From assembly GCA_046328905.1 (NCBI GenBank), contig JAXLVP010000001.1:2030731-2094730 (forward strand): 64,000 nucleotides of DNA, given 5' to 3'. Position numbers and translations under genes: made by a program. Under the pieces are notes generated by a model. The model was not told where the DNA came from, did no database searches, and saw only the letters and a list, made by a program, of their open reading frames with translations. This document shows, piece by piece, positions 40,718-64,000 of the stretch. The DNA comes from Bdellovibrionota bacterium. Lineage in GTDB: Bacteria; Bdellovibrionota_C; UBA2361; SZUA-149; CAZDWZ01. Position 1 is the stretch's first letter. Each line of letters begins with the position of its first letter.

Positions 40718-40721
40718 TTAG

Positions 40722-48594: not shown

Positions 48595-48747
48595 CGCCCG
48601 ACATTCCGCACGCAATCTCAGACCCCGCTTTAGACTTTCGTCGCTCGCAATCACCTCAAGGCAGTCCACTTGGACGCCAACGCCACTCGTGTGCGTTGCG
48701 TCGTTTGTGGGGTGGACACTAGCCCGTGTGATTCGGAGATTCATGCT

Positions 48748-49251: not shown

Positions 49252-49490
49252 TTAGGACCCTTCGAGAAGCCAACCGTATCCTGGTTTGTTTGCTCGCTTC
49301 CTTGCTGATGCTGTGGAATAAGCTGATCTCGCCTTTTTTCGGGGATCGCTGCCGCTTCTGCCCGAGCTGTTCCGAGTACGCCCGTGATGCCGTTTGCCGG
49401 CATGGAGCACTGCGCGGGATGTGGCTCGCGGCTCGGCGGGTGATCCGCTGTAACCGATTTTTTCCGGGTGGATTCGACCCGGTGCCGTGA
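49248..49490 (+). CDS. yidD: Membrane protein insertion efficiency factor YidD
   Basis: The motif [11 protein letters not shown]...HG. 80 aa with a GTG start that overlaps the rnpA stop. Confidence 0.9.
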
Positions 49491-49540
49491 GGCACCGCTC
49501 TCGAAAAGGCCCTACGTTTGAAAGGATGATACCGTAATCT

Positions 49541-51364: not shown

Positions 51365-51377
51365 CCGGAGCATCGCT

Positions 51378-52787
51378 GTGAAGGCCGATCCGCATCCGTT
51401 AGGAACTTCGGTCGATACGATAGCCGCTCCGATTACCGCCCATGGACGCGCCGGAGTTGCTGTAGTTCGCATCAGCGGGCCGCTCGCAGCTCCGGTGCTC
51501 GCCCAGATCTCGCCGCGTGCGAGTCTCATCACCGCCCAGCCTCGAACGCTCGTCATGACTCCCTTTCTCGAGGGACAGATTACGGGCGCCGACCATGTGC
51601 TCGACTACGGGCTCGCCGCTTATTTTCCAGCTCCAAACAGCTTTACCGGCGAAGACTGCGTCGAGCTGAATCTTCACGGGAGCCCCTATTTGGTTACTCG
51701 GTTGATGAGCATCCTCGCCGAGCTGGGTGTTCGTTCGGCGAAGCCCGGTGAGTTCAGTGAGCGTGCATTTCTCAACGGGAAGCTGGATCTCAGTCAGGCT
51801 GAGGCAATCGCAGACCTCATCGCCGCGGACACAGAGATCCAAGCCCGTGTCGCGCGGGAGCAGCTCGAGGGTCGCCTTTCGAAGGCGCTCAGCGATCTGG
51901 GGGAGCCGCTCAGAAATCTTCTCGCCGAGATTGAGGCGCACATCGATTTCCCCGATGAGGATATCGAGCCGTTGACGTATTCGGAATGGACAAGCGCTCT
52001 GCGCGCGATAGAAGGGCAAATTGAGGCCTATCTTCGCTCGTTCGCATATGGGCGACTGTGCCGTGAGGGCGCGCTCGTCGTGCTCGCAGGGGTTCCAAAC
52101 GCAGGGAAATCAAGCCTGCTGAACCGGCTTCTGGGCGAGGATCGAGCGATCGTCACCGCCGTGCCGGGAACAACCCGGGATAGTATCGAGGAGCCTGCGT
52201 CGCTGGGCGGGCTGAGAGTTCGATTCTGTGACACGGCCGGCCTTGCGACAGAGCATCGGACACCCGACGAGGTCGAGCAGCTCGGCATCGAGCGGAGCTG
52301 GAAGAAGCTGACCCAAGCCGACCTGGTGCTTTATGTCTTTGACATTTCGACCGGACTTGATGCCGAGCTCGATATCGTTGAAGGGGTCCGTCAATCAGCT
52401 CGAAAGGTGATGCTCGTCGCCAATAAAGCTGACCTCGTTTCGAATGCTGGAGCGGGTAATCTCCCGTCGGGCTCCGATGCCCGTCTCGTCTCTGCCCAAA
52501 ACGGCGAGGGAATCGCTCAGCTCGCTGATGCGATCGTGGCCGAGCTGCTCGGCGATGACGCCCAGTCGGACGCTCTGCTGATAACCAATCAGCGGCATTT
52601 CGAAGCGCTCAGAGGCGCGGACCGGGCACTCAAAGACGCCTTGGTAGCGCTGCAATCCTCGACTCCGGCAGAGTTCGTGGCGGTCGACCTCAGGGCGGCT
52701 CTCGGCGCCCTCGAAGAGATCATCGGCAGCACACCGACCGAGGATATCTTGGGCCGCATCTTTTCTAAGTTCTGTATCGGAAAGTAG
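51378..52787 (+). CDS. mnmE: tRNA uridine-5-carboxymethylaminomethyl modification GTPase MnmE
   Basis: G-domain motifs (GVPNAGKSSL, DTAG, NKAD) and the C-terminal CIGK tetrapeptide. Confidence 0.95.
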   Translation: MKADPHPLGTSVDTIAAPITAHGRAGVAVVRISGPLAAPVLAQISPRASLITAQPRTLVMTPFLEGQITGADHVLDYGLAAYFPAPNSFTGEDCVELNLHGSPYLVTRLMSILAELGVRSAKPGEFSERAFLNGKLDLSQAEAIADLIAADTEIQARVAREQLEGRLSKALSDLGEPLRNLLAEIEAHIDFPDEDIEPLTYSEWTSALRAIEGQIEAYLRSFAYGRLCREGALVVLAGVPNAGKSSLLNRLLGEDRAIVTAVPGTTRDSIEEPASLGGLRVRFCDTAGLATEHRTPDEVEQLGIERSWKKLTQADLVLYVFDISTGLDAELDIVEGVRQSARKVMLVANKADLVSNAGAGNLPSGSDARLVSAQNGEGIAQLADAIVAELLGDDAQSDALLITNQRHFEALRGADRALKDALVALQSSTPAEFVAVDLRAALGALEEIIGSTPTEDILGRIFSKFCIGK

Positions 52788-52858: not shown

Positions 52859-53242
52859 CTACTTCTTCGCTTTTCCTTCTTCAAACAACGCCGCGAGATA
52901 CTCACGGAGATAGCCGAGATTAACGGGCTTCGGCAGGAACCGCGAAGCGCCGAGCTCCAAGATGTGGTTGATGTCTGCCAGGGGAACCACGCCGGAGACC
53001 ATGATGATCGGCGTGTCTTTGTATTGAGCCGTGCCGCGCATGAGTTGGATGAGGTTTTCACCCGACAGGTCAGGCATCATCATGTCGGTGATGAGACCCA
53101 CGATGTCTGAATTGTCACTGAGAATGTTCCAGGCACGCATTCCCGTCGAGGCTTCGATGGTGCTGTAGCCTTCACTCCGAACTGCTTGGACGAGGACCGT
53201 CCGGCTGGTTAGGTCATCGTCTGCTATGAGAATCTTCTGCAT
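52859..53242 (-). CDS. Standalone response-regulator receiver domain protein (CheY-like)
   Basis: ILIADDD, the phosphoacceptor in LITDMMMPDLSG and the conserved Lys in PKP. The start was taken at the internal Met (MQKILIADDD). Confidence 0.8.
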   Translation of the reverse strand: MQKILIADDDLTSRTVLVQAVRSEGYSTIEASTGMRAWNILSDNSDIVGLITDMMMPDLSGENLIQLMRGTAQYKDTPIIMVSGVVPLADINHILELGASRFLPKPVNLGYLREYLAALFEEGKAKK

Positions 53243-53486
53243 CCTGGTTTTCCTGTTCAAACTGCTGCGCGGCCGCCACCATCCCTGACCGGAATGGGTC
53301 TGACCCTGTTTGGTGAGTCGGTATCTCTCCCTCTTAACGTATATAGATTTGAGCTGTCGAGAAATTCAGGGTAGACCCCTGCCCTGTCATATCGGGTATC
53401 ATCCCCGTTTGGTTCGAGTAATAACAGAATGGGGCGCAGCGCTATCGGTCGTCCCGAAAACTATTACTTCACTGAGACTAGGTACG

Positions 53487-53816
53487 ATGGCTCGTTTGGA
53501 TCGTGAGAAAGCGCTTCGACTCCTCGACGGAGACATGGAAATCTACTCGAAGATAGTGGAAGTCTTCTCCGGAGATGTGCCGGTTCAGTTGAGCGTGCTG
53601 AGCGCTGCGCTCGCAACGAACGACATCAAAGAAGTTGGTCGAGTCGCCCACGCTCTCAAGTCGGCGGCGGCCACGGTCGGAGCCGAAGACCTCCACGCCA
53701 TTCTGTTCAAGCTTGAAAAAGCGGCCGAAGGTCGTTCGCCGGAGTCAATTCATAAGCTCGTTGCCGAAGCGAAGCTGGAAATAGAGGCGGTTCGCGGCGA
53801 GCTCGCCCGCTCCTGA
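53487..53816 (+). CDS. Hpt (histidine phosphotransfer) domain protein
   Basis: An Hpt motif HALKSAAATVGA in a four-helix-bundle-sized (110 aa) helical protein. It is divergent from the receiver gene. Confidence 0.55.
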   Translation: MARLDREKALRLLDGDMEIYSKIVEVFSGDVPVQLSVLSAALATNDIKEVGRVAHALKSAAATVGAEDLHAILFKLEKAAEGRSPESIHKLVAEAKLEIEAVRGELARS

Positions 53817-53871: not shown

Positions 53872-54969
53872 TTACTCCGGGACGATTCTCTGCGCCTGAT
53901 TCTCACCGGTCCGCTTCCATAAGTCGGACAAAACCTCCAACATTCCGTTTGCGATTGTGCGCCGATACGGATGGTTCTGCGGAAGCTGCCTCATCAGGCG
54001 CCGATGTGCCGCTGTCATGGAGTGATAGGGCAAACTGGGAAGGAGGTGGTGAAGGGAATGATAGCGAAGCCCAACCGGTGCGAGCAGCGCTGCGATTGAC
54101 CACGGCGACACGACGGAGATCGAATCGAGAAGCTGGTCGGAGAAATCCACTGTCTGGCCAGGATTCGTGTAGCGATGGGCGCAAAGGCTCCGGATGTAGT
54201 TGTAGGCCATGATGAGCACCAGAGACAGATACGTGTTCAGAAACAGCGCCGCTGGGACAATGCTTTTGGACCAGAGCACGACTACCGCACACCAAAACGC
54301 AGTGGCGTAGACCTCCTGCAAAACGCCAATCATCCGTTGTTCCGCGTTTGGAAGCGGCCGAATGTATTTGAGGTTCATGGCAATCGTGCTCATGTGCTGA
54401 ATCACCCAATTGCGAAATCTACCCCCAATCAGAATCGATATCGGACCGAGCACGATGAAACGCACGGCAAGAAGCACCGGGGCGATCCAGATGTTAAGGA
54501 AAAGAGGGACGAGCCAAGCTGCACGGGAACCCAGACCAAGTGGAACATAACGTGGGTCCGAAGCGGTTCCGAACGTGTTGCTTTTGTGGTGATCGAGGTG
54601 TGAAATTCCGTATGTGGAGGTCGGTTGAAAGAGAATGGCACCGCAGAGCATGTTCCAAACGGTCGAGAACGGTCGCACCCAGGGCCGGTTACTGTGCGCG
54701 ATCTCGTGGATGAAGAACAGCGAGCGGTAGAAAAGAAACGAATTCGCGACGAGAGCTAGCACGCGTAGCCCAAACGAAACTTCAGAGCTCGACGCGAACC
54801 ACAGACAGGCCCATGCGAGGGTGATGCTGGCTGTGAAGTCAGCCCAGTAAACAAGCGGTCGAGGCTCGAGAAGGTCGCCGACAATCAGCTTCACCGCCTT
54901 CATGTCGATTGAGCGATCTTCTGCAACTACCGGCTTCTGTAAGGCGTTTTCGTTCGTTCGCGTTGCCAT
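53872..54969 (-). CDS. Membrane di-iron fatty acid desaturase / AlkB-like hydroxylase family protein
   Basis: Three His boxes (FIHEIAH, SHLDHHK, RYHSLHH) and multiple TM helices. It lies 10 bp downstream of the TonB-dependent receptor gene. Confidence 0.7.
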   Translation of the reverse strand: MATRTNENALQKPVVAEDRSIDMKAVKLIVGDLLEPRPLVYWADFTASITLAWACLWFASSSEVSFGLRVLALVANSFLFYRSLFFIHEIAHSNRPWVRPFSTVWNMLCGAILFQPTSTYGISHLDHHKSNTFGTASDPRYVPLGLGSRAAWLVPLFLNIWIAPVLLAVRFIVLGPISILIGGRFRNWVIQHMSTIAMNLKYIRPLPNAEQRMIGVLQEVYATAFWCAVVVLWSKSIVPAALFLNTYLSLVLIMAYNYIRSLCAHRYTNPGQTVDFSDQLLDSISVVSPWSIAALLAPVGLRYHSLHHLLPSLPYHSMTAAHRRLMRQLPQNHPYRRTIANGMLEVLSDLWKRTGENQAQRIVPE

Positions 54970-54979
54970 AGGTGTTAGC

Positions 54980-57058
54980 TCAATAATGGAGGGTTGCTTT
55001 GGCGTAAAAGCCTCGTTTGATCTCGGTCTCGGGCGGTCCGAAGATGTTGCCGACAAACTCCTCATGATGATCATGAAGGAGGTTTTGGCCGAAGAGGGCG
55101 AGCTCGAGATTGGGCCGTACATGCCAGAGCACTCCGCTATCGAGCTCCGCGTAACCGTCGATATCACCACTTCCCAGGTGGGACACGTATCGGGGCAGGA
55201 AGCTCAGTTCGAAGTCCTCCGCTACGGTCAGGTATACCCGAGCGTTGAGCTGGTTTCGCGGTGTCCCTTCCTCGATGAGCAGCTTGTCGCCACTATCGGT
55301 GCTGTCTCCCTGGTCAACGCCGATGTCGATGAAGGAATAACCGCCGGCCAGACGGGCCCAGTTTGTCGGATGCCAATCAAGAGAAACTTCAAATCCGATT
55401 GATCTGGCATCAAGGGCATTGTCGAAGAGGACGGGGATAACAACCGTAGGACGATCTGCTCCGGGAGCAGTGCCGAAATACGGTGTCCCGCCCTCGAAGC
55501 TGTAGACATCCGAGTAACGATTGTAGAAGGTTGCAAAGTCGACAGAAACCTCCGGAGACAGCTGCGATCGCGCTCCGAGCTCGTAGGAAAGGACGTCTTC
55601 AGATTCGACCTTCCGGCTGCCGAATGCGGTTACAAGAGCCTCAGGTGAGCCGTCCGAGGCCGGAATTGCGGCGATTGGAAACTGAACGTCCTCAAATACC
55701 AGTGACGGCGGCGCCACGGCGCGAGAGACGGCGAGCCAAATCGAGTTCGCCGAGTCCGGTGTCCAAATCAAGCGTGCGTTCGGCATCACCTCGTTTCCTG
55801 TGGCGACGTTGTGCTCGAACTTCGAGCCGAGAATGAAATGCAGCTGATTTTCGATCAGCGCGATCTCGTCCTGGACAAAGCACGACACAAGGTCTTTTTG
55901 CCGATTCGGGGGATTCGTGCTCTCAGCGAACGTGCCTTCTGTGGCACTCCAAAAGTGCTGATATTCGACGCCGTAGACGACGTCGTTGCCTGCAAACGGT
56001 GTGAAACGATGCTGAAAATCCGCATCGGAAACGTTATAGTCCAGATGGATGATCGTGCTGTCGAGCGTCTGCTGACGATAACTGTAATGCGCTTCGAGCG
56101 AAGAGGTCTGAGTCATTTCCCGCCTCCACTTCACTGAGCCCATACCGCCTTTCCACTTCTCCTGCCCGCTAAAGCTCTCACTATCGACGTAGGGTGGGTC
56201 TAGGGAGGGCGTCTGCGGTCGGATTTCCGTGGAGTTGCCAAATGTCTCCCCCCCGACGAAAAGTGTGTCCTCAGCCGAAAGCTTTGACTCTGCGCGCAAG
56301 CCGCCGGAGATGATTTCCCAACCGTCGTCAGCGTCGCCGCCCGTTTTCAGCTCGTTCGACGCGCGGTCGGCGTATCTTCCGAAGACCCGATACGTGGTGT
56401 CGTCACCGACGGTTCCGCCGTAGCGGAGCGAGCCGAAGCCGCGTTCCTCGTTTCCGCCGCCACCGCTCGCAAGAAGTCCCTGCGTTTGTTTGGTTCGCTT
56501 CGTGATGATGTTAATCACGCCGTTTACAGCGTTTTCGCCCCATAAAGCTGCACCGGGGCCGCGGATGACTTCAATCCGCTCGACGTCGTCGAGGACGATC
56601 TCATTGGTCTCCCAATAGACGCCGTTGGTGATCGGTGAGAACACGCTGACACCGTCGAGCAATACGAGAAGCTTGTTCGCAAAAACTTGGTTGAAGCCGC
56701 GGATGCTGATGGCCCACTTGCTCGACGAAACCCGTGCTACGCTCACGCCCGGCACCAAGCGTAGCGCCTCTGCGACGTGAGTCGCGCCGGAGCGGCGAAT
56801 ATCCTCATTCGTGATCACGTAGACGGCGGAGGCTGTTTCCGAAAGCGTCTGCTCCTTTTTGCCCGCTGATGTGACGACGAGGTCGAACGTCAGCAGCTTC
56901 TTGAGACCGACCTCTGTGAGGTCGCCAGGCAGAGCAGAATCGTCTTGCGTGGCGCTCGGTCCCGGATGGGACGCCGACGAGTCTGATTGTCCCGCGGTTT
57001 GCGCATTCGCGAGAGGTGTCAGGAGCGCTGTCAGCGCAGCTACCGAGAACCAATGCAT
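54980..57058 (-). CDS. TonB-dependent outer-membrane receptor
   Basis: A signal peptide (MHWFSVAALTALLTPLANA), a TonB box / plug domain (LVVTSAGKKEQTLSETASAVYVITNEDIRRSGA...VPGVSVAR...IRG) and a long beta-barrel ending in an aromatic residue (LHY). Confidence 0.85.
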   Translation of the reverse strand: MHWFSVAALTALLTPLANAQTAGQSDSSASHPGPSATQDDSALPGDLTEVGLKKLLTFDLVVTSAGKKEQTLSETASAVYVITNEDIRRSGATHVAEALRLVPGVSVARVSSSKWAISIRGFNQVFANKLLVLLDGVSVFSPITNGVYWETNEIVLDDVERIEVIRGPGAALWGENAVNGVINIITKRTKQTQGLLASGGGGNEERGFGSLRYGGTVGDDTTYRVFGRYADRASNELKTGGDADDGWEIISGGLRAESKLSAEDTLFVGGETFGNSTEIRPQTPSLDPPYVDSESFSGQEKWKGGMGSVKWRREMTQTSSLEAHYSYRQQTLDSTIIHLDYNVSDADFQHRFTPFAGNDVVYGVEYQHFWSATEGTFAESTNPPNRQKDLVSCFVQDEIALIENQLHFILGSKFEHNVATGNEVMPNARLIWTPDSANSIWLAVSRAVAPPSLVFEDVQFPIAAIPASDGSPEALVTAFGSRKVESEDVLSYELGARSQLSPEVSVDFATFYNRYSDVYSFEGGTPYFGTAPGADRPTVVIPVLFDNALDARSIGFEVSLDWHPTNWARLAGGYSFIDIGVDQGDSTDSGDKLLIEEGTPRNQLNARVYLTVAEDFELSFLPRYVSHLGSGDIDGYAELDSGVLWHVRPNLELALFGQNLLHDHHEEFVGNIFGPPETEIKRGFYAKATLHY

Positions 57059-57119
57059 TCGGAGCTTGCGTAAGAAGCGTGGAGAAGGCTTTCCGCGCCC
57101 CGAGGTTTTCCATTGAGCC

Positions 57120-58043
57120 TTATTCATTTCCAGCACGTCGCCGCGGCTCCTCTCCGCTCAGCTTCTCCGACAGCGGTCGGCGAAAAGTTACTAAGATGTT
57201 TCCGCGTGGCGGAAAAAAATATCCGAAAAATGCCTCGAAAAGCAGGCGGGGAGAACGAAACATCACCGACTTTTGCATCGGTTGGACGCAGACGTCGATC
57301 ATTCCGCCGGTGGCGTTGATGTAGGACCACATGTAACGCGTATTCACGGTCGGGATGAGGCTGTCGAAGTAAAAGCGTCTCAGCGTGTGCTGCACCTCGA
57401 GCGAGTGCTCTCTGGCGAGCTCGAAGAGCACGCGACCCGAAAGTATATGCCTGTGGTACGGCTGTGAAAGCTCCATTGCAGGAAATGTCCGGTACTGAAG
57501 CGGAATGTGGTCGGCATTCGGTGTTCCTAGCACCATCAGACCACCGGGCCTGACCCGTCCGACGAGCATGTTGAGAAACTCCCGTGGACTGTCGACGTGC
57601 TCGATGACGTCGTAGGACACGACGGCATCAAACGTTTGAGAGAAGATACCGGGGTCGTTGAACTGCTGAACGAACGAATCGAATCCGAAGACATTGGTAT
57701 AACCCGCCGACCTCAGCACTTGAAGAAAAAGCCCTGCGCCGCAGCCGAAATCGAGAATACGGTCGGTCTTCTTCAGGCCGAATCGCTCGAGCAGACGAAT
57801 TCGATTTGCGTATCCGACACGCGTGTGGAAATCCAATCGGTGATTCTTGAACGGGTATCGGTCGTAGTAGTGCAGCAGGTCGACTTCTTCCTTGGAGTGC
57901 AGAGAACCGCAGTTCGTGCAGCGCCAAACGGTGAAGTGGTCGTTTCGAAAGCAGTCGACGTGGCACGGGATGGAGGCGACATCCGTGGCGCCGGCAAAGG
58001 TGCCCGGATTGTCACAAAGATTACATTCCAGACACTCAGCCAT
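57120..58043 (-). CDS. Class I SAM-dependent methyltransferase with an N-terminal Cys4 zinc ribbon
   Basis: CLECNLC...CTNCGS, then the Rossmann motif ILDFGCGAGLF and an acidic DVIEHV. Confidence 0.7.
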   Translation of the reverse strand: MAECLECNLCDNPGTFAGATDVASIPCHVDCFRNDHFTVWRCTNCGSLHSKEEVDLLHYYDRYPFKNHRLDFHTRVGYANRIRLLERFGLKKTDRILDFGCGAGLFLQVLRSAGYTNVFGFDSFVQQFNDPGIFSQTFDAVVSYDVIEHVDSPREFLNMLVGRVRPGGLMVLGTPNADHIPLQYRTFPAMELSQPYHRHILSGRVLFELAREHSLEVQHTLRRFYFDSLIPTVNTRYMWSYINATGGMIDVCVQPMQKSVMFRSPRLLFEAFFGYFFPPRGNILVTFRRPLSEKLSGEEPRRRAGNE

Positions 58044-59340
58044 GAGCTGCCCTCCGATTGTTTGTTACTTGGCCGCGAGGCTCTGCGCCGGTTACCTCGT
58101 TGAGGATTGAGGGGAAGATCTTTTCCGGTCGATACTCTTCCAGCTCTTTCGCAATTTCCTTTGCGAGATCTCGATGGCGAGTGGAGCGAAGTAGGGCTGT
58201 GAGCGCAGTTTTGAAATCCTCAGCAGATGAGTTGTCCGCCCTGCACAAAATTCCGGCGCCGCAGCGATGAACGTTGGTCATGCACAGGAGCTGGTCCATG
58301 TTCGAAGCGATACCGAGCACGGGTTTTCCTTGAGCGAGCGCTTGGTAGGTGGACGGGCTGCCGCCGTTCGAAATCACTACGTCGGCTCGTTGAGCCAGAG
58401 CTTCACCCGGAAGATATTCAGCGTGTCGAAATCCGCTTGGAATCTGATCGGATGCGATGCGGCCGGCGGTTGCTAAAACGACCTGGCAGTCCAGTGATCG
58501 GAGCGCTTCGAACAGCGTTGGAAGCACTTCCAGCGGCCCCGAAGAGCCGAGCGAGAGATAGATTATCGGCTTCGAGTCAGACAGATTGGACCACCAACTG
58601 GGAAGACCGCATTCGGGCGTCCAAGAAACTGAACCGAGGTAGCGATGTGAGGGCAGCAGCTTCTCGACGGGGGCGATTCCTGGCGTGTCCGAGAAACAGG
58701 TGATATCGCCCCAGGTAAAGCCGGTGAGATAGTTCTCGAACGGAGGAAGGCCATATTCCCGCCTGACCTGGTCGAGCCCTCGGGCCTGCCTTTTCATGAC
58801 CAGCGGAAGAAGCATGTGGAAGAGGCCTTCTGCTGCGCGCACACCGACGCCGCCTTTTAATCGATGGAGCCCCAACGTCCGGATCGGTTCGAACGAGGGA
58901 AGCGGAAATCGGTTTCGTTCTGCAAAAGGACTCCAATACGCGTTCGTCAGGGAGACGTATGGAATACGCTTGACGGTAGCGCTCACTCCGAGCGAAAGCC
59001 GCATGTCGCCCACGACGGCATCAGGCGAGAGCCGTTCGAGCAGCCCGAGATCTTCTTCTGTCCGCGTTCGGACGGTGTCCTCCGGGAAGAGCTCGGCCCC
59101 TTTCGCGAGAATCTCCAGAAACTCTTCGGGCGATGTCGAGTGGACCTTGTGATACGTGCACCGGGTTTCGTCGATGAGGGGTCGGTAGCGCTCGGCGCAG
59201 CAAAAATGCACGTCGAAAAGCTCGCGATCAAGGCACTGCGCGAGCACGTAAGGTCTAACGACGTGGGCGAGAGTCACTCCTTCGCCGAGGAACAAGATTC
59301 GCTTTTTTTGAGCTTTTTTCCGAGGGTCAGCCGTCGTCAC
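58036..59340 (-). CDS. GT1-family UDP-glycosyltransferase (MGT / macrolide-glycosyltransferase-like)
   Basis: A GT-B fold with the C-terminal UDP-sugar binding region (HAEYLPGEALAQRADVVISNGGSPSTYQALAQGKPVLGIASNMDQ, a PSPG-like box). It overlaps the methyltransferase start by 8 bp. Confidence 0.8.
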   Translation of the reverse strand: MTTADPRKKAQKKRILFLGEGVTLAHVVRPYVLAQCLDRELFDVHFCCAERYRPLIDETRCTYHKVHSTSPEEFLEILAKGAELFPEDTVRTRTEEDLGLLERLSPDAVVGDMRLSLGVSATVKRIPYVSLTNAYWSPFAERNRFPLPSFEPIRTLGLHRLKGGVGVRAAEGLFHMLLPLVMKRQARGLDQVRREYGLPPFENYLTGFTWGDITCFSDTPGIAPVEKLLPSHRYLGSVSWTPECGLPSWWSNLSDSKPIIYLSLGSSGPLEVLPTLFEALRSLDCQVVLATAGRIASDQIPSGFRHAEYLPGEALAQRADVVISNGGSPSTYQALAQGKPVLGIASNMDQLLCMTNVHRCGAGILCRADNSSAEDFKTALTALLRSTRHRDLAKEIAKELEEYRPEKIFPSILNEVTGAEPRGQVTNNRRAAHG

Positions 59341-59368: not shown

Positions 59369-60196
59369 TCACTCCCTGAGCACTGCTACTTCGAGAAGCT
59401 CTGAATCGATCTTCAGCCCCAAGCGATGGGCAAGTGGAAGATCGACCGCGATGCGCGCGCGATTCGACTCTGCGAAGAGTTGCATCACGCAATTTCCCCA
59501 CTGAACTCTCTCCACGGAACAAACGGAGAGAAGCGGGTGATTTTTCAGTTGTTCGACAAATCCTCGGTCGTTCGTCAACACATCCGATCCGACGAAAACG
59601 ACGTTGCACTGCTGAAGCAGAACGCTGCTGCCGCGCTCCGCAAATGTGACTCGGATCTTTTTTCCGCGGGCCGATTTTCCTCGAACGGTATCAGCGATGA
59701 ACCCGTTGAGCGGGTCGGACCCGACGACGCAAAGCGAAATAGGGGCGCCGGGTCCATTGGATGGAGACCCTGCCGACGCATCTTCCGACGAACTTTGCGT
59801 GCTGCCGGAGGACGCTTCGGGCAATGAAACGAATTTCACGAGGTAGTAGACGAGAGCTGCCCGAATCTTCCCTGAACGATCTTCGACCGTATCGGCGAGC
59901 GCCGATGAAGGCGCAATCACAACTAAAAAATAAAACACAGCAGATACGAGAACGCAAACGCGTCTGCGGTGTCCGGCGACGCTGCGCCGAATCTCGGAGC
60001 GAGGCGAGAGCTTTGCGGAGAATCGGTTTCTCACATTGTTGCCGGTGAAGCTGCTCTTCGATGCGGTCATGTTCGCGACGGGCATATCACCCGCTTTGCT
60101 GATGAACGCACGCGAGTGCCGTTCGATGAACGATCGACTGAAGTATCTGCGCTGCGGAGCTTCGGCGCGACAGCTTTCTTTCGAGATCGCTCGCAT
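59369..60196 (-). CDS. Secreted DUF4154 / YfiR-like periplasmic protein
   Basis: A signal peptide (RRRVCVLVSAVFYFLVVIAPSSALA) and C-terminal blocks (ISLCVVGSDP, VVFVGSD, IAVDLPLAHRLGLKIDSELLEVAVL) that resemble the YfiR family. The start is uncertain within the ORF. Confidence 0.45.
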   Translation of the reverse strand: MRAISKESCRAEAPQRRYFSRSFIERHSRAFISKAGDMPVANMTASKSSFTGNNVRNRFSAKLSPRSEIRRSVAGHRRRVCVLVSAVFYFLVVIAPSSALADTVEDRSGKIRAALVYYLVKFVSLPEASSGSTQSSSEDASAGSPSNGPGAPISLCVVGSDPLNGFIADTVRGKSARGKKIRVTFAERGSSVLLQQCNVVFVGSDVLTNDRGFVEQLKNHPLLSVCSVERVQWGNCVMQLFAESNRARIAVDLPLAHRLGLKIDSELLEVAVLRE

Positions 60197-60390
60197 TTAG
60201 GGAGTTATGGGACAATCCTCCCCATGCTTGTAAAATATCGGCTCAAATCACGGCAAGTCCGAATTTATTGTCGCAAATTGCAACAGCCCAAGCGTTGATT
60301 GCGTGGGGTCGTTGTTGTACATCGCTGACTTTGCGCGACCGTTTCTGCTTTCCGGCCGCGACCAACGACCCATTACAGCGCCGAAAGAAC

Positions 60391-62031
60391 ATGGCCCCGA
60401 GAAGCGCAACATCACACCGGATGCTGTTCACCGGCGCCCGTTTTTCCGCTGCTGTTGCGCGGTGGATCCACTGCCTCGGAGCGGATTCGGTTATCGTGAG
60501 CACTGAGCGATGTGCCGATTTCGTGCAAGGTTGTGAGCCGAAGCACGCTGTGCCGCCCGCTCTTCTCCGTCCCGTATCTGTCCACCAGCTTCGCGAGCTC
60601 GTGCAGATCGCCGCTGAGTTTTCGATTCCCATCCATCCGGTCAGCCGCGGGAAAAATTGGGGCTACGGCTCCGCGTCGGCGTCACAAGAGGGCTGCGTCG
60701 TGGTCGATCTCGGCGCGTTGAACCGTGTTCTCGAGGTAAACGCCGACCTCGCATACGCCGTGATCGAACCAGGCGTCACTCAGGAGCAGCTCTACCGCTA
60801 CCTCGAGGAGCAGAACATACCACTGATGGTCGACGTCACCGGTGCACCACCCAGTGCGAGCATCGTCGGAAACACCATTGAGCGGGGATACGGCTACACC
60901 CCCTACAGTGATCATTTTGCTCATACGGCATGCTTCGAAGTGTTGCTTTCGGACGGAACCTTGTTTGAAACCGGGTTCGGTCGCTTTGCAAATGCTCGGG
61001 CAAAATACCTTCATAAAACGGGCATCGGCCCGTCGCTCGACGGTTTGTTCACCCAGTCGAACTTCGGCATCGTGACGAAGATGGCCGTCTGGTTGATGCC
61101 GAAGCCTGATCGCTGTGCAGCGTATGTCGTTCAGGCGCAGAACGACGCTGAGCTTGCACGAATGTTGGTCGCATTGCGGGACCTGAAGCTCCGCGGTTTG
61201 GTCGAAGGCAGTCCTCATGTGGTGAACGATTTGCGTTCGCTGTCGTTGCTCGCCCAGTTTCCTTTCGACTCATCCAGTCCGGACACATTCGGTGAGAATG
61301 AGCTGAGCATTCTTCGAAAGCGGTGGGGAGTAGCCCCCTGGACCTGCATCGGTGGCCTTTGGGGCACGGAAGGTCAGGTCGCAGAATCCGCTCGCGCAAT
61401 TGCTGAACGGATGAAATCCGCCGGTCTGACCGAGCCGCAAATTCTCTCCGCGCTCGAGGTCTCGGGAGACCAGCACGATTGCACTCTTCCCAAAACCGAG
61501 GAGGAGCTTACCCGCTACCGCGCCGAATTGATGTCTGCCTTGGTGAGCGGCATTCCTACCATGCGCGCGATTCCAGGGATGTATTGGCGGAAGCGCCAAC
61601 CGGCGAACCGCTCGAGCTTGGATCCAATCCGAGATAAATGCGGCCTGCTCTGGTGCTCGCCGGTGATTCCGCTCACAGAAGCAGACTCTAACCTGCTCAT
61701 GTCGATCATTCGCGGCACGTGCAGAGAGCGCCGACTGGAAGTGAACGTCGCACTCGCTCTTGTCAACGATCGCACAGCGACGGCGACAGTCGGGCTTTTC
61801 TTTGATCCTGCCGAGCCCGAGCAGCGAGCAGCAGTCGAGGAGGCATACTCAACGCTTTTGCGACGTTTCGCGGAGTCGGGGTACTTCCCCTATCGAGGAG
61901 CCGATACGCTGAGTGAGCTCTGCGGCGCTCCGAATCAATCGGAGATAGCGTTTCAGCAGGTCTGTTATCGCATCAAGAGCGCGCTTGACCCGCAACATAT
62001 TGTTTCGCCCAATCGTTACGGCATCATTTGA
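60391..62031 (+). CDS. FAD-linked oxidase of the VAO/PCMH family (p-cresol methylhydroxylase PchF / vanillyl-alcohol oxidase-like)
   Basis: The FAD_binding_4 region VSRGKNWGYGSAS...VDLGALNRVLEVNADLAYAVIEPGVTQEQLYRYLEEQNIPLMVDVTGAPPSASIVGNTIERGYGYTPYSDHF closely mirrors the PchF/VAO N-terminal domain. The start was chosen at the internal Met. Confidence 0.75.
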   Translation: MAPRSATSHRMLFTGARFSAAVARWIHCLGADSVIVSTERCADFVQGCEPKHAVPPALLRPVSVHQLRELVQIAAEFSIPIHPVSRGKNWGYGSASASQEGCVVVDLGALNRVLEVNADLAYAVIEPGVTQEQLYRYLEEQNIPLMVDVTGAPPSASIVGNTIERGYGYTPYSDHFAHTACFEVLLSDGTLFETGFGRFANARAKYLHKTGIGPSLDGLFTQSNFGIVTKMAVWLMPKPDRCAAYVVQAQNDAELARMLVALRDLKLRGLVEGSPHVVNDLRSLSLLAQFPFDSSSPDTFGENELSILRKRWGVAPWTCIGGLWGTEGQVAESARAIAERMKSAGLTEPQILSALEVSGDQHDCTLPKTEEELTRYRAELMSALVSGIPTMRAIPGMYWRKRQPANRSSLDPIRDKCGLLWCSPVIPLTEADSNLLMSIIRGTCRERRLEVNVALALVNDRTATATVGLFFDPAEPEQRAAVEEAYSTLLRRFAESGYFPYRGADTLSELCGAPNQSEIAFQQVCYRIKSALDPQHIVSPNRYGII

Positions 62032-62138
62032 TCGTGCCGCAACCGCGTTTTTGATCGGTTTTTGAGGTCCGTTCGTTGTCGTTGGTGACGCCGAGCGGGA
62101 GACACACAATTGCGAAGAAGGGGAGAATTCAAACCAGA

Positions 62139-63497
62139 ATGGAAGTCGGGCTCGCTGCAGATTTCTCGGAACGTTGCCAAGCGTGGCACTTGGTGCACCG
62201 CCAATACACAAGAAAGGGCCTTTCTCCGGCGAACCCGAGCAGGATGCTGTTTTCACCGCTCGACCTGCTTCCAACCTCTGTCACGGCCGTCGCACACGAA
62301 GCAGGCGACCTTGTCGGCACGATGTCCGCAGTCATCTGTCCGGTCGGTGCGCTCCCATCGGGCAAACAATTTGAAGCGGATTTAGAGGAGTTCGGCGTCG
62401 AGGGGCGGATCGTTTGCGAGTTCACAAAGCTCGCTTGCGTCGATGACCGCGGCCCCATCGGTGAGCAGGCAGTCCTCTGGATCGTCGGCTATCTTCTCGA
62501 ATGGTGCTCGCGGAATCTGGTTGATGACGTTTTTTGTGTCACGCATCCGCGGCACGCGCTCGCATGGAATCGCATCTTCGGATGGTCGCCAATCAGTGCG
62601 GTGAAGTCGTGCCCGCACGTCAACGCTGCGCCGGGGGTATTGCTCCATATTGACTTACGAAGGCTGCAAAGCGACCGCGCAGCCATCAGCGTCCGGGGAC
62701 GAAGGATCCTGAGCGAGTGCGCAGGAATGTGTCGCCAGGGGGCGACATCCTACCGGATGACCGGCTCGGAAGCCGCCCTGTTGATGCTCCAATGCCCGGA
62801 CCCGATTGACCGCACAAACACGATTCAGCGGAGCCTGCTGACTCGCTACTATCCCTGGGCGACCACATTTATCGAGCGTTTCATGAGCTCTGCCGCGGAA
62901 CCGTGGCGCCCGCTCTCATTCACTTCGCTGCGGAAGCCCCATCGGGAGAGAGGATATTCTTTCTCACTCCACGGCCCTCGGCCGGATTCGAGCCAGCCGC
63001 CCGAGCTGTTCAGTGGAGAGGAGCCTCGCTTTCTCGTCGTTGGAGGAACGCCTTATCTACAGTCCGTGATGCGCCGTCAGCTGCGAGACCGAAACTACCA
63101 CTGCTCGATAGTACGAGACCCGGCGATCGCTCGGAAGCATGCGCAGCGAGAACGATTCGACCTGGTGCTGCTCAGCGAAAAGCTGCAGGGGGAGCAGGGT
63201 CAGCTCTTTGCGGACGAAATCAGAGACGTCGATGGCGCTCTGAGAAGGCACACCCCGATTTTACAGCTCAGAGCCGCGCAAACTTCAGGTGAGACTCTCC
63301 GCCGCGGAGGCGAACGCCCCTTGAAACAGTGGGTTTACGAGTACTCCTCCCCCACCCTCCTTCTCCGTGCGCTGGACACACTCTCATCGGCACCGCCGAA
63401 GCGGGATTACCAAGCGTATGCGGAGGAACTGAGCGGGTGGTCGAGAGAAACCGTTCGACAGCGCGAACGAGCCGCAGCGCATGCGGGACGGGCGTGA
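62139..63497 (+). CDS. Fusion protein: N-terminal FeeM-family N-acyl amino acid synthase-like GNAT domain plus C-terminal degenerate (pseudo-)receiver domain
   Basis: The N-terminal ~240 aa follows the pattern of FeeM / PEP-CTERM-associated N-acyltransferases (a LxHRxY block, a central hydrophobic core and HPRHALAWNRIFGW). The C-terminus has a receiver-like alpha/beta pattern, but VVGGTP replaces the acidic DD pair, LVLLSEKL places Ser where the phospho-Asp should be, and PILQLRA follows. Confidence 0.5.
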   Translation: MEVGLAADFSERCQAWHLVHRQYTRKGLSPANPSRMLFSPLDLLPTSVTAVAHEAGDLVGTMSAVICPVGALPSGKQFEADLEEFGVEGRIVCEFTKLACVDDRGPIGEQAVLWIVGYLLEWCSRNLVDDVFCVTHPRHALAWNRIFGWSPISAVKSCPHVNAAPGVLLHIDLRRLQSDRAAISVRGRRILSECAGMCRQGATSYRMTGSEAALLMLQCPDPIDRTNTIQRSLLTRYYPWATTFIERFMSSAAEPWRPLSFTSLRKPHRERGYSFSLHGPRPDSSQPPELFSGEEPRFLVVGGTPYLQSVMRRQLRDRNYHCSIVRDPAIARKHAQRERFDLVLLSEKLQGEQGQLFADEIRDVDGALRRHTPILQLRAAQTSGETLRRGGERPLKQWVYEYSSPTLLLRALDTLSSAPPKRDYQAYAEELSGWSRETVRQRERAAAHAGRA

Positions 63498-63522
63498 AGA
63501 CGCACGAGATGGGGTGACGACA

Positions 63523-63771
63523 ATGGGAAACCGATTCGGATCATCCAATAAACGCGAGGCCAAGGCTGAGAAGGCTCCCGTCGAGGCCCCGGCTTCCTTC
63601 CGGAAGCAGGTTCGGCTATTCGAAATCGAAGTGGTCGAAGATGCGCTCCGGCTGAACAACTTCAATGAGTCACAGACGGCGAGATATCTCAAAATGGACC
63701 GGAATACACTCAGACGCATCCGTGCTCGAGCGCGGCAGCAGCGTAGGAATGACGAAAAAAGCGGTGGCTAA
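63523..63771 (+). CDS. Standalone Fis-type helix-turn-helix DNA-binding protein (resembles the NtrC C-terminal HTH)
   Basis: VEDALRLNNFNESQTARYLKMDRNTLRRIRA is a typical Fis/NtrC-family HTH. 83 aa from the internal Met. Confidence 0.55.
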   Translation: MGNRFGSSNKREAKAEKAPVEAPASFRKQVRLFEIEVVEDALRLNNFNESQTARYLKMDRNTLRRIRARARQQRRNDEKSGG

Positions 63772-64000
63772 TGCGCGTTCGTTGTCGACCCGGGTTCAGC
63801 GTCCTTGATGAGGAAGCTCTCGATTGTCGAAAGGAGCGTATCCTTGTCGATTGGCTTGTTGAGAAAAGCGTCCATCCCGCAGTCGATACACTTCTGGAGT
63901 CCGTCCGGGCCCACGCTGGCCGTGAACGCGACGATCGGGAGGTGGTTCTGCGCCCCCTGTTCCCGCTCACGAATAACGCGCGTTGCTTGAAATCCGTCGA
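63768..64000 (-). CDS. 3' end of a receiver-domain-containing protein (response regulator or hybrid histidine kinase), truncated by the window end
   Basis: Minus-strand translation gives ...IREREQGAQNHLPIVAFTASVGPDGLQKCIDCGMDAFLNKPIDKDTLLSTIESFLIKD*, a classic receiver C-terminus. It is convergent with the Fis-HTH gene, with a 4-bp overlap. Confidence 0.55.
   Translation of the reverse strand, partial: DGFQATRVIREREQGAQNHLPIVAFTASVGPDGLQKCIDCGMDAFLNKPIDKDTLLSTIESFLIKDAEPGSTTNAH

Follow-up and report, generated by a model that had tools for sequence, protein, structure and literature searches.

A probable fee-type gene cluster with a receiver-fused N-acyl amino acid synthase beside a putative envelope sensing module in a Bdellovibrionota bacterium

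Gene content and layout of the locus

The window (the whole stretch analysed, 64,000 nucleotides of contig JAXLVP010000001.1 from a Bdellovibrionota bacterium) carries the following features towards its right-hand end. All open reading frames named in an earlier, sequence-only reading of this DNA were present where it had placed them.

52859-53260, minus strand: stand-alone canonical response-regulator receiver (Pfam Response_reg, 69.7 bits, full length)
53310-53816, plus strand: Hpt phosphotransfer protein, the next component that a hybrid kinase requires (Pfam Hpt, 50.2 bits)
53872-55170, minus strand: fatty-acid desaturase, last gene of the minus-strand operon (Pfam FA_desaturase, E 2.3e-22)
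54980-57136, minus strand: TonB-dependent outer-membrane receptor of the type accompanying YfiR-like proteins (Pfam Plug, E 1.1e-24)
57120-58043, minus strand: class I SAM methyltransferase whose N-terminus has a zinc-ribbon-like motif, a candidate tailoring enzyme (Pfam Methyltransf_23, E 4e-21)
58036-59340, minus strand: GT1-family (EryCIII/MGT-like) small-molecule glycosyltransferase (Pfam EryCIII-like_C, E 8.9e-15; NCBIfam MGT subfamily)
59369-60196, minus strand: YfiR/DUF4154-like periplasmic protein (Pfam DUF4154, E 1.2e-23)
60197-60390, no strand: divergent intergenic region, 194 bp between the two operons, presumed from gene spacing to be a shared regulatory region
60391-62031, plus strand: FAD flavoprotein of the 4-phenol-oxidising VAO/PCMH subgroup (PchF-, VAO-, FeeG- and CndG-like; Pfam, PDB and Foldseek searches)
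62139-62654, plus strand: FeeM-type N-acyl amino acid synthase domain, residues 1-172, with the invariant catalytic-position Glu94
62655-63026, plus strand: conserved helical extension of the synthase (approximately residues 173-255), then a disordered linker (AF2 secondary structure and pLDDT)
63027-63497, plus strand: (pseudo-)receiver part of the synthase, degenerate in sequence, plus its C-terminal helices (Response_reg at 22.8 bits, under the cut-off)
63481-63771, plus strand: small Fis-type HTH protein (Pfam HTH_8, 31.8 bits against a cut-off of 22)
63768-64000, minus strand: final 77 residues of a hybrid histidine kinase (CHASE8-HAMP-HisKA-HATPase-REC) whose gene converges on the synthase operon

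The minus-strand operon is tightly packed, with the YfiR-like gene first, then the GT1, methyltransferase and receptor genes and the desaturase gene last (gaps of 28, -8, -17 and approximately 10 nt), which places sensor and tailoring genes in one operon; the methyltransferase gene shares 8 and 17 nt with the genes on either side. The desaturase reading frame overlaps the receptor gene, and its true start is therefore likely Met68, near position 54969. The true start of the YfiR-like gene is probably an internal Met, and a signal-peptide-like stretch (VCVLVSAVFYFLVVIAPSSALA) lies upstream of the domain. On the plus strand, the HTH gene (also on the Logan contig L001) overlaps the synthase stop by 17 nt. 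A promoter scan of the divergent region returned one sigma-70-like match (60209-60236), with a number of sites no higher than in shuffled sequences. No dedicated ACP, acyl-activating enzyme or exporter was found in the cluster.

A flavoprotein of the 4-phenol-oxidising subgroup

The flavoprotein had been proposed to be of the PchF/VAO type, and we confirmed this by sequence and fold. It carries a FAD_binding_4 domain (Pfam, E 8e-25) and, in a sequence search of the PDB, matched PchF (1dii; E 9.7e-70; residues 14-545 aligned; 29.6% identity) and VAO/EUGO (E 1e-56 to 1e-60), whereas D-lactate dehydrogenase reached merely E 2.7e-12. Foldseek ranks 1-47 for its AF2 model (pLDDT 88.5) were all 4-phenol oxidoreductases, with PchF at the top (TM 0.85/0.90) and D-lactate dehydrogenase at rank 48; the protein groups with PchF/VAO and not with D-lactate dehydrogenases. 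The protein shares full-length homology, FAD_binding_4 plus cap domain and the phenolate-binding Tyr/Tyr/Arg triad (Tyr92, Tyr501 and Arg502; kept in 120/120 homologues) with PchF, vanillyl-alcohol oxidase and eugenol oxidase, but its genomic context is biosynthetic rather than catabolic and no cytochrome c gene, PchC included, lies near it.

The clade around this protein has Gly and Ala/Ser at two N5-contact sites, Leu at the position of VAO His422 and no equivalent of PchF Tyr384. It shows neither of two signatures, that of the oxidases being Leu plus Asp/Glu at N5 with a flavin-linking His and that of the dehydrogenases Pro/Ile plus Ala/Thr with a flavin-linking Tyr. The N5-site residues and a 14-17 residue insertion are the clade's own; the comparison with FeeG, CndG and HyeB is by their descriptions, that with PchF and VAO by sequence and fold.

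A FeeM-type synthase fused to a degenerate receiver

The N-terminal domain of 62139-63497 belongs to the FeeM family, as had been suggested, by sequence, fold (superposition on FeeM at 2.0 A) and catalytic Glu. The protein is approximately 18% identical to FeeM, to which it adds the helical extension and the (pseudo-)receiver. Relatives of 260-300 aa that stand alone have the extension as well (65 representatives of the type 'FeeM plus middle'), and the synthase-receiver fusion family is rare: at 50% identity it makes up approximately 38 clusters out of 1.84 billion representatives. The sequence-only reading had described a receiver fused to the synthase; a receiver-like domain is indeed there, but all five signature residues are replaced (D12G, D13G, D57S, T87R and K109E in alignments to 7c1j and CheY) and its AF2 model has four strands only. 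Lacking these residues, the fused receiver of this genome cannot accept a phosphoryl group at the canonical site. The receivers of the synthases in L014 and L015 are canonical and that of L009 has Glu at the acceptor position; in all three loci the synthase-REC gene is followed by the kinase gene in the same direction, as in cognate pairs.

This signalling-like architecture raises the alternative that the protein is a regulator or scaffold, a ligand- or acyl-ACP-binding GNAT pseudo-enzyme that makes no lipid. The receiver-like fusion and the co-transcription with the kinase in L009, L014 and L015 are reminiscent of a signalling protein, and NCBI annotates the synthase as 'response regulator'. 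We nevertheless consider this very unlikely, since Glu94 and 6 other positions are invariant in 10 diverse members, the fold superposes on that of FeeM, stand-alone synthases without a signalling domain adjoin the same flavoprotein gene (L016 and metagenome loci) and tailoring enzymes are conserved around the synthase.

Conservation of the gene neighbourhood

Synthase and flavoprotein genes occur together in the relatives L003, L004, L009, L014 and L016, which bears out the synteny expected for the pair. In 5/5 informative loci retrieved with the synthase (the window, L003, L004, L014 and L016), the flavoprotein gene was adjacent or within 2 kb; in L009, retrieved with the flavoprotein, the genes lie approximately 4 kb apart. 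A FeeM gene was found in 17 of 80 metagenome loci retrieved with the flavoprotein (11 within 600 nt), and 6 metagenome FeeM genes near the flavoprotein were confirmed by Pfam at 133-174 bits. Roughly 76-79% of the loci in the less biased metagenome sample, many of them on short contigs, had no recognisable N-acyl amino acid synthase nearby, and the flavoprotein clade is broader than the N-acyl-tyrosine pathway.

The genes for synthase, flavoprotein, TonB-dependent receptor, YfiR-like protein and CHASE8 kinase are all present in the window, L004, L009 and L014. L003 has the first four on a contig that ends before the kinase position, and the shorter contigs L002 and L015 carry synthase and kinase only. 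GT1 is kept in the window, L004 and L009; its copies adjoin the YfiR-like gene in L004 and L009 (37-42% identity), and its stop overlaps the flavoprotein start in L009 and L010 (translational coupling). The methyltransferase has no sequence homologue in the other loci, and L014 carries a methyltransferase at the same position. With the same set of genes found again in relatives at 25-49% identity, chance is far from sufficient to explain the arrangement.

TonB-dependent receptors are importers, and the characterised PchF/EUGH relatives of the flavoprotein are catabolic. The locus might thus serve uptake and catabolism or detoxification, with the receptor importing a phenolic that the flavoprotein oxidises as PchF does p-cresol, while the FeeM protein is unrelated or modifies the import. 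A Scalindua locus (L013) would suit such a role, as its flavoprotein gene stands beside receptor, periplasmic binding protein and kinase genes with no FeeM gene within 10 kb. However, the cluster contains neither downstream aromatic-catabolic genes nor a cytochrome subunit, GT1, methyltransferase and desaturase are enzymes of biosynthetic type, FeeM and flavoprotein genes repeatedly adjoin each other with gaps often below 200 nt, and no signal peptide is present in the flavoprotein translation, whereas imported phenols reach the periplasm first. We regard an uptake and catabolism or detoxification role as very unlikely.

The receptor, YfiR-like protein and kinase

The conserved regulatory partners, mostly overlooked in the sequence-only reading, are the TonB-dependent receptor (43-49% identity to copies in L003, L004, L009 and L014), the YfiR-like protein (kept in the same four loci) and the CHASE8 hybrid kinase (37-48% identity to copies in L002, L004, L009, L014 and L015). 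The last of these is the receiver/kinase gene already noticed at the window end; the remainder of it lies beyond the window and is mostly readable on L001, which is identical and also cuts the kinase N-terminus. The YfiR-like gene at 59369-60196 had not been named in that reading. NCBIfam has dedicated models for this triad, which the window proteins match best, all below the cut-offs: NF053590 'TOL_0244 family' for the receptor (515 bits, cut-off 645), NF053591 'TOL_0243 family YfiR-like' for the YfiR-like protein (63 bits, cut-off 125) and NF053592 'sensor histidine kinase, YfiR-like protein-associated' for the kinase (129 bits, cut-off 194).

As in YfiBNR (TpbB), the genes specify a periplasmic YfiR-like protein together with a CHASE8 membrane sensor and an outer-membrane partner; the periplasmic domain of YfiN is a CHASE8 domain and is repressed by YfiR (PMC8085984). 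The output of the window's sensor is, however, a hybrid histidine kinase rather than a diguanylate cyclase, and the outer-membrane partner is a TonB-dependent receptor rather than the YfiB lipoprotein. Since we found no paper characterising the triad, its mechanism rests on analogy: receptor, YfiR-like protein and kinase would act like YfiB, YfiR and YfiN, with the YfiR-like protein restraining the CHASE8 domain of the kinase until captured by the outer-membrane partner, and the output would be a phosphorelay, not c-di-GMP.

Relation to known clusters and proposed pathway

Synthesis followed by oxidative tailoring of an N-acyl-tyrosine-like molecule, as originally proposed, is supported by precedent. 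The VAO/PCMH family includes two 4-phenol-oxidising enzymes, FeeG (encoded with FeeM in the fee cluster) and CndG, whose substrate is N-acyl-tyrosine; they decarboxylate it oxidatively by way of a p-quinone methide (PMC11350588, PMC8762209), and they are the sole characterised 4-phenol oxidisers of N-acyl-tyrosine (CndG in vitro, FeeG by product; PMC11350588). In hyellamide biosynthesis, a FeeG homologue is accompanied by a glycosyltransferase and the phenol is glycosylated (PMC11959600). The synthase, oxidase and GT1 glycosyltransferase of the window are consistent with this scheme, and the synthase-oxidase pairing, which had been thought undescribed, has been found before in clones of soil DNA. 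The novel aspect is a lipid synthase fused to a degenerate signalling domain within a conserved sensing module of outer-membrane receptor and kinase.

The window shares a FeeM-fold synthase with active-site Glu with the fee cluster (eDNA clone CSL12; FeeM is an N-acyl-tyrosine synthase, PDB 2G0B) and, with fee and CndG (chondrochloren), a partner flavoprotein of the same subgroup and the predicted chemistry, quinone-methide oxidation of N-acyl-tyrosine. Unlike fee, it has no dedicated ACP such as FeeL and is embedded in the receptor/YfiR-like/kinase module. The hye cluster of Hyella patelloides likewise joins an oxidase and a glycosyltransferase on an N-acyl-tyrosine scaffold to give a glycosylated product (PMC11959600), but its acyltransferase is SGNH/GDSL-type rather than FeeM-type, its host phylum is Cyanobacteria rather than Bdellovibrionota, and neither a signalling-domain fusion nor receptor/YfiR-like/kinase genes are reported for it, whereas the window has both.

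Overall, building on the domain identities, folds, catalytic-position residues, loss of receiver residues and conserved synteny observed here, we favour the reading that the region from 52.8 kb to beyond 64 kb is probably a fee-type cluster, wired directly to an envelope sensing module, whose product is a tailored lipid derived from N-acyl-tyrosine. In the substrate, product, step order and signalling direction that we infer as most likely, the cytoplasmic FeeM domain would take a fatty acyl group from acyl-ACP or acyl-CoA and attach it to the amino group of tyrosine or of a closely similar 4-hydroxyphenyl amino acid. The flavoprotein would bind the phenolate through its triad, and its FAD would accept a hydride from the benzylic position, leaving a p-quinone methide that would most likely collapse by decarboxylation to an N-acyl 4-hydroxystyryl eneamide, as for FeeG and CndG; desaturation or hydration would be alternative fates. 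GT1 would then glycosylate the product, following the hyellamide precedent, and in this lineage the methyltransferase and desaturase may decorate it further.

VAO/PCMH enzymes yield alkenes or benzylic alcohols from 4-alkylphenols. With such products familiar for the family (mechanism summarised in PMC7617285), the oxidation might instead end without decarboxylation, in N-acyl-2,3-dehydrotyrosine (the job of the nitroreductase-type oxidases TyzC and OxzB) or in a beta-hydroxy product glycosylated by GT1. Among natural products, N-acyl dehydrotyrosines are widespread, and their clusters contain a methyltransferase and a fatty-acid desaturase (PMC7293339, PMC12479983), as the window does. These nitroreductase/ThiF clusters also resemble the window in a FeeM/AHL-synthase-fold synthase whose product is then oxidised at the tyrosyl side chain by a flavin-dependent enzyme, with MMPL-type export in relatives, and L006, L008, L012 and L032 combine both toolkits, with flavoprotein homologues beside ThiF or a ThiF-nitroreductase fusion and MMPL exporters. 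Their oxidase, however, belongs to the FMN nitroreductase superfamily, and their pathway needs a ThiF cyclase; the window has neither. As flavoprotein and nitroreductase-type enzyme coexist in L012 and L032, the former is not simply a substitute for the latter, and both characterised oxidisers of N-acyl-tyrosine decarboxylate their substrate. A non-decarboxylating outcome is thus unlikely, and decarboxylation remains our preferred route.

Control of the pathway and lineage-specific regulators

In relatives whose receiver is intact, the synthase would itself be the response regulator. Here the fused receiver has decayed, and control would therefore run via the Hpt and free receiver, the HTH protein or protein-protein contact. 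The receiver and Hpt at 52.8-53.8 kb, both singled out in the sequence-only reading, are real, but the receiver, possibly a terminal phosphorelay acceptor, has no close homologue at the same position in other loci and is lineage-specific in position. The detached Fis-type HTH also stood as a domain, but together with the Hpt, methyltransferase and desaturase it has no counterpart in any related locus compared; on sequence comparison, these genes appear lineage-specific. By analogy, a hybrid kinase, separate Hpt and Fis-type HTH recall acyl-homoserine-lactone/Vibrio-type quorum sensing, although the HTH protein is without receiver and AAA+ domains. The Hpt gave weak NCBIfam matches to the ArcB/TorS Hpt and to LuxU.

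Organization of the gene cluster

All open reading frames named in the sequence-only reading exist as described, at the coordinates given there. The cluster and the chromosomal genes to its left are arranged as follows.

35709-37562: dnaA, in an origin-proximal set (35709-52787)
within 35709-52787: dnaN, recF, gyrB, gyrA, gpsA and a 4HBT thioesterase gene
48670-49251: rnpA
49541-51364: yidC
51378-52787: mnmE
52859-53260, minus strand: canonical stand-alone receiver, left of the minus-strand gene group
53310-53816: Hpt protein, left of the minus-strand gene group
53872 to ~54969, minus strand: fatty-acid desaturase (profile match; start adjusted)
54980-57136, minus strand: TonB-dependent receptor (profile matches)
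57120-58043, minus strand: SAM methyltransferase (profile matches)
58036-59340, minus strand: GT1 EryCIII/MGT-like glycosyltransferase (profile matches)
59369-60196, minus strand: YfiR/DUF4154-like periplasmic protein (profile matches)
60391-62031, plus strand: flavoprotein, 546 aa, FAD_binding_4 (Pfam)
62139-63497, plus strand: synthase, 452 aa, FeeM domain (PF21926) and weak receiver match (Pfam)
63481-63771, plus strand: Fis-type HTH protein, 96 aa (Pfam)
63768-64000, minus strand: C-terminus of a convergent kinase (last 77 codons; rest outside the window)

The five minus-strand genes are tightly packed (gaps of 28, -8, -17 and ~10 nt), and a 194-bp spacer separates them from the divergent plus-strand genes. 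The housekeeping genes mnmE, yidC and rnpA lie beyond the stand-alone receiver and the Hpt gene; as they belong to a replication-origin-proximal set, the lipid cluster begins ~15 kb from dnaA. The receiver/kinase gene reported earlier at the window end was confirmed as the C-terminus of a hybrid kinase with CHASE8-HAMP-HisKA-HATPase-REC domains, read on an identical Logan copy of this region (L001; N-terminus cut by the contig end).

At NCBI, the synthase is annotated as 'MAG: response regulator [Bdellovibrionota bacterium]' on a 3.26-Mb contig, in a 417-aa version with a later Met start (P0001; 92% coverage). A Shine-Dalgarno-like GAAGGGGAGA motif precedes the start at 62139, and the alignment of homologues supports this position as the probable start of the 452-aa protein. 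A frameshifted synthase-REC-HTH fusion was considered and rejected, as the C-terminus '...RA' followed by a stop is common to the homologue P0002 and the HTH gene is absent from related loci. Two other reading frames are probably over-long at their 5' ends: the YfiR-like frame (59369-60196) has ~75 non-conserved residues ahead of a signal-peptide-like segment, and the desaturase frame (53872-55170) shares 191 nt with the receptor gene and is likely to start at Met68. Promoter and terminator scans gave counts no higher than in shuffles and were thus uninformative.

The flavoprotein falls into a 4-phenol-oxidising subgroup

Within the VAO/PCMH family, the flavoprotein is a member of the 4-phenol-oxidising subgroup, in agreement with the PchF/VAO assignment in the sequence-only reading. 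FAD_binding_4 was matched with 87.6 bits (Pfam), and a PDB sequence search aligned PchF end to end (residues 14-545, E 9.7e-70), with vanillyl-alcohol and eugenol oxidases at 1e-56 to 1e-60. Using the AF2 model (pLDDT 88.5, pTM 0.90), Foldseek placed PchF first (TM 0.85/0.90), and ranks 1-47 were all 4-phenol oxidoreductases. In the HMMER alignment as well as in a 121-sequence MAFFT alignment, the phenolate-binding residues Tyr95, Tyr473 and Arg474 of PchF line up with Tyr92, Tyr501 and Arg502 of the window flavoprotein, and this Tyr/Tyr/Arg triad is invariant in 120/120 homologues. An identity as D-lactate or glycolate dehydrogenase was rejected: D-lactate dehydrogenase was found at E 2.7e-12 and Foldseek rank 48, compared to 9.7e-70 and rank 1 for PchF, and the NCBIfam GlcD model scored 42 bits against a cut-off of 568.

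Identity to PchF is 29.6%, and the clade has features of its own around the flavin. It carries an insertion of 14-17 residues ('DPxxD-xCG') beside the flavinylation region and a Leu at the position equivalent to VAO His422; PchF Tyr384 is not conserved, its column holding Met, and a Tyr is found one residue later in 78/120 homologues. A family member with non-covalent flavin, nsVAO, is known (PMC7617285). The two N5-contact sites are an invariant Gly and Ala/Ser, which matches neither the oxidase signature (Leu with Asp/Glu) nor that of dehydrogenases (Pro/Ile with Ala/Thr; PMC7617285). No CxxCH gene for a cytochrome c partner was found in 52-64 kb.

The synthase carries a FeeM domain

The FeeM-type assignment of the synthase was upheld as well. 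PF21926 was matched with 97.8 bits (cut-off 27, E 7.3e-28), with synthase residues 14-172 spanning profile positions 1-158 of 158, and the fold is that of a FeeM/AHL-synthase-like GNAT. When the whole PDB was searched with a profile built from ten diverse relatives, FeeM was the one match (E 3e-17). All 10 diverse members share Glu94, which aligned with the active-site glutamate of FeeM (Glu95), in the motif KLAEVVQF (chain index 96). The specific profiles proposed in the sequence-only reading, Acetyltransf_5 (PF13444) and TIGR03694, gave no match at E <= 0.01 in Pfam and NCBIfam, and membership of PF13444 or of the PEP-CTERM/exosortase-associated synthases (TIGR03694) was rejected. The only NCBIfam match of the N-terminal domain was a weak one to PRK14852 (33.8 bits).

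Relation to known N-acyl-tyrosine pathways

The pairing of synthase and flavoprotein, called undescribed in the sequence-only reading, has precedents. FeeG is encoded in the eDNA fee cluster, as is FeeM, and CndG acts in chondrochloren biosynthesis (PMC11350588, PMC8762209). On an N-substituted tyrosine, both transfer a hydride to FAD; the p-quinone methide formed in this way is decarboxylated, which yields a hydroxystyryl eneamide (PMC11350588 section 5.2.1; PMC8762209). The central argument of the sequence-only reading, by which N-acyl-tyrosines are 4-alkylphenols and hence VAO/PCMH substrates, was correct and already established (PMC11350588, PMC8762209). Hyellamide, published in 2025, is an N-acyl-tyrosine eneamide in glycosylated form; its cluster encodes a homologue of FeeG, along with a glycosyltransferase for which decoration of the phenol has been proposed (PMC11959600). 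Given these precedents, the synthase, flavoprotein and GT1 of the window fit a known biosynthetic scheme, and the window resembles the fee cluster in that its flavoprotein is encoded with a FeeM-type synthase. Judged by subgroup membership and gene context, the flavoprotein is a putative orthologue of FeeG, CndG and HyeB. Like other FeeM-family enzymes, the synthase would form long-chain N-acyl (aromatic) amino acids from acyl-ACP or acyl-CoA, and its acyl acceptor is presumably tyrosine or a 4-hydroxyphenyl analogue.

Oxidised N-acyl-tyrosines are also made by a second known route, with nitroreductase-type flavin oxidases and ThiF proteins (TyzABC, OxzAB); stieleriacine-type clusters follow it and carry methyltransferase and desaturase genes too (PMC7293339; PMC12479983). 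Neither a ThiF-type cyclase nor a nitroreductase-type flavin oxidase is encoded in the window cluster, unlike in the relatives L006, L008, L012 and L032, where this toolkit is present.

The cluster is conserved together with a sensor module

Related loci were found by exact-protein look-ups and their genes compared by tblastn. Synthase, flavoprotein, TonB-dependent receptor and YfiR-like protein occur together at five loci including the window. The neighbourhood is thus conserved in relatives, and its conserved regulatory partners had been overlooked in the sequence-only reading.

Gene order at related loci and identity of the conserved proteins to those of the window
L003: YfiR-like, receptor, flavoprotein, synthase; contig ends before the kinase position
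L004: GT1, YfiR-like, receptor, flavoprotein, synthase, convergent CHASE8 kinase
L009: kinase, synthase-REC, receptor, YfiR-like, GT1, flavoprotein
L014: methyltransferase, YfiR-like, receptor, Trp-halogenase-family enzyme, flavoprotein, synthase-REC, kinase
L002, L015: synthase and kinase only; short contigs
TonB-dependent receptor: 43-49%
hybrid kinase: 37-48%
GT1: 37-42%
flavoprotein: 33-40%
synthase: 26-47%
YfiR-like: 25-35%

A FeeM gene adjoins the flavoprotein gene in the window, L003, L004 and L016 (in the latter a stand-alone synthase relative directly after it), lies near it in L014 and is ~4 kb off in L009. Receptor, YfiR-like and kinase genes are all present in the window, L004, L009 and L014, and L003 has the first two before its contig ends. 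The HTH and Hpt genes, proposed earlier as nearby phosphorelay parts, are indeed present, but they have no homologues at the other loci even at E 0.01, and neither have the methyltransferase and desaturase of the window.

The three sensor genes correspond to consecutive NCBIfam models, namely NF053590 ('TOL_0244 family TonB-dependent receptor'), NF053591 ('TOL_0243 family YfiR-like periplasmic protein') and NF053592 ('sensor histidine kinase, YfiR-like protein-associated'). Each model was the best or specific match of its window protein, all below cut-off (receptor, 515 bits vs 645; YfiR-like, 63 vs 125; kinase, 129 vs 194), which indicates divergent relatives of a triad recognised by curators. 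A paper characterising this triad was not found in the literature. In YfiBNR signalling, the diguanylate cyclase YfiN is kept repressed by YfiR in the periplasm, which acts on the periplasmic domain of YfiN, now classed as CHASE8; the outer-membrane lipoprotein YfiB sequesters YfiR and thereby lifts the repression (PMC8085984). The window shares with this system a YfiR-like protein and a CHASE8 sensor; it differs in having a HisKA/HATPase/REC output instead of GGDEF and in lacking YfiB (an OmpA-like lipoprotein). By analogy, the receptor may take the role of YfiB and the hybrid kinase that of YfiN.

Two relatives encode additional enzymes. At L014, a Trp-halogenase-family flavin halogenase (6421-8103) lies between receptor and flavoprotein, at a locus with a canonical synthase-receiver fusion. 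In chondrochloren biosynthesis, the halogenase CndH, which is of this type, acts on the tyrosyl ring; the L014 gene hints at a halogenated N-acyl-tyrosine as product. At L004, the locus of the synthase homologue P0004, the region just past the kinase (13715-16915) encodes a single NRPS module of 1066 aa with adenylation, carrier and condensation domains, together with a response regulator of 259 aa.

The fused receiver is degenerate in the window and intact in some relatives

The receiver reported as fused to the synthase gave a weak match of 22.8 bits, under the PF00072 cut-off of 30.2, and all five signature positions are changed (D12G, D13G, D57S, T87R, K109E). Alignments to solved receivers, to the four closest homologues and to E. 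coli CheY with 38 family members agreed on these changes, and the region was modelled with four strands only (AF2). Judged by its residues, the domain is a pseudo-receiver and not phosphorylatable at the canonical site. The fused receiver cannot carry the signal in this Bdellovibrionota genome; the Hpt protein, the free receiver or the small protein with the HTH are candidates for this task, but all of them are lineage-specific.

An exhaustive HMMER search of 1.84 billion representatives returned 114 proteins at E < 1e-30, and the extent of the fusion family was visible by this search only. A word-indexed protein search yielded 4 homologues of the fusion only, to which a profile re-search added just P0126, the L009 synthase, which was known already; with the fusion alignment, a scan of genome contigs recovered an already known contig and no others, and a scan of metagenomes gave no matches. 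Architectures were tallied from the best 150 matches (147 read) and five query-alignment sequences. Among these sequences, ~38 proteins consist of synthase, helical extension and receiver, 65 have the extension without a receiver, and 42 are a synthase domain alone. Long fusions (570-640 aa) have mostly canonical receivers with a 'VEDN' motif, Asp57, Thr87 and Lys109; the short ones (430-460 aa), which include the window protein, have degenerate receivers, with Asp at the acceptor position in 4/14.

The layout of the kinase gene was also recorded. In L014 and L015 (canonical receivers) and in L009 (Glu acceptor), the kinase gene comes after the synthase-REC gene, co-directionally and with gaps of 9-135 nt, and loci with a pseudo-receiver (window, L002, L004) have a convergent kinase gene. 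Co-directional adjacent genes are the usual layout of cognate kinase/regulator pairs. The Glu acceptor ('VILLEY') occurs in two long fusions, P0126 (L009 3996-5810) and P0139, in which the other receiver residues are largely kept; these receivers may be phosphomimetic and constitutively 'on'. Both proteins have ~290 residues without a Pfam match between synthase and receiver, with an N-box-like stretch inside.

Possible product and signalling role

Metagenomic clones have been known since 2000-2002 to make long-chain N-acyl-tyrosines and eneamides derived from them; to our knowledge, little has been learned about how these lipids are regulated and what they do in native producers. What is new here is a synthase built as a response regulator (degenerate in the window) and a fee-type cluster conserved with an uncharacterised outer-membrane-to-kinase sensor. 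This locus and ~38 related protein clusters join the synthase to a two-component receiver, and at the readable loci its gene is tightly linked to those for an outer-membrane receptor, a YfiR-like protein of the periplasm and a hybrid kinase. The linkage provides a testable handle on the timing of lipid synthesis and on whether the lipids are sensed, and it gives a first functional context to a sensor triad curated in NCBIfam but unstudied.

Several readings start from the observed domain identities, folds, key residues, receiver decay, operon packing and conserved synteny. The flavoprotein may perform an oxidative decarboxylation, an assignment that we hold tentatively and at slightly under even chances; otherwise it would desaturate or hydroxylate its substrate. 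The oxidised product would probably then be glycosylated and methylated. The receptor/YfiR-like/kinase module would control production of the lipid, sense it, or both. Going further, the locus could encode a self-contained lipid signalling circuit, in which the product is sensed by the cluster's own receptor and a phosphorelay feeds back on the synthase; we regard this as speculative and rather unlikely. In such a circuit, the response-regulator-type N-acyl-tyrosine synthase would give rise to an oxidised, glycosylated lipid, which would be recognised at the outer membrane by the TonB-dependent receptor of the cluster. The ligand-bound receptor would then capture the YfiR-like protein and release the CHASE8 hybrid kinase, and feedback on the synthase would be direct in relatives with an intact receiver and indirect in the window genome. 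If true, this would assign a native signalling role to long-chain N-acyl-tyrosine derivatives and a function to the uncharacterised triad.

The flavoprotein clade in other genomes and metagenomes

The link between FeeM and flavoprotein is strong when loci are collected via the synthase, and partial when they are collected via the flavoprotein. In a reverse sample of 80 metagenome loci fetched via the flavoprotein (30-42% identity), 17/80 had a FeeM-subfamily gene, within 600 nt in 11 of 17, and the six such genes that were checked were all Pfam-confirmed (133-174 bits). An Acetyltransf_5/autoinducer-synthase-type GNAT adjoins the flavoprotein in one or two further loci; the others had unrelated neighbours or short contigs. 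A near-universal FeeM linkage of the clade, drawn from seven hand-picked contexts, was thus too strong a claim against this sample. Two or three tandem FeeM-subfamily genes lie beside the flavoprotein at L018, L020, L032, L035, L042 and L070, a pattern reminiscent of the stieleriacine cluster with its four synthase genes.

In another cluster type, found in L006 (1-11617), L007 (Omnitrophica contigs) and L008, the flavoprotein clade occurs with a PilZ-FeeM fusion, which suggests that the same enzyme is placed under c-di-GMP control. These clusters also encode two B12-binding radical-SAM enzymes, ThiF, a beta-eliminating lyase, an MMPL exporter and LolA-like (TP_0789-like) and DUF1302 proteins. 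An OxzB-like ThiF-nitroreductase fusion is encoded near the flavoprotein in L012 and L032.

L012 is from Desulfacinum hydrothermale DSM 13146, a sulfate reducer in culture. That strict anaerobes carry the clade speaks against a flavoprotein with an obligate need for O2. Fee-type chemistry is extended by the window cluster to Bdellovibrionota and by the flavoprotein clade to anaerobes, in which the O2-dependent nitroreductase route would fail. At L012 (5614-20459), a DUF1302 gene is followed by one for an MMPL exporter, whose stop overlaps the start of the flavoprotein gene, and a PEP-CTERM protein, a second MMPL and the OxzB-like fusion are encoded within 9 kb.

At L013 (10001-18434; Candidatus Scalindua), no FeeM gene lies within 10 kb of the flavoprotein. 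After it come genes for a TonB-dependent receptor and an ABC_sub_bind periplasmic protein, then those for a histidine kinase with a HAMP domain, a receiver and a receiver-HD protein; this is a second arrangement of receptor, periplasmic protein and kinase next to the flavoprotein clade.
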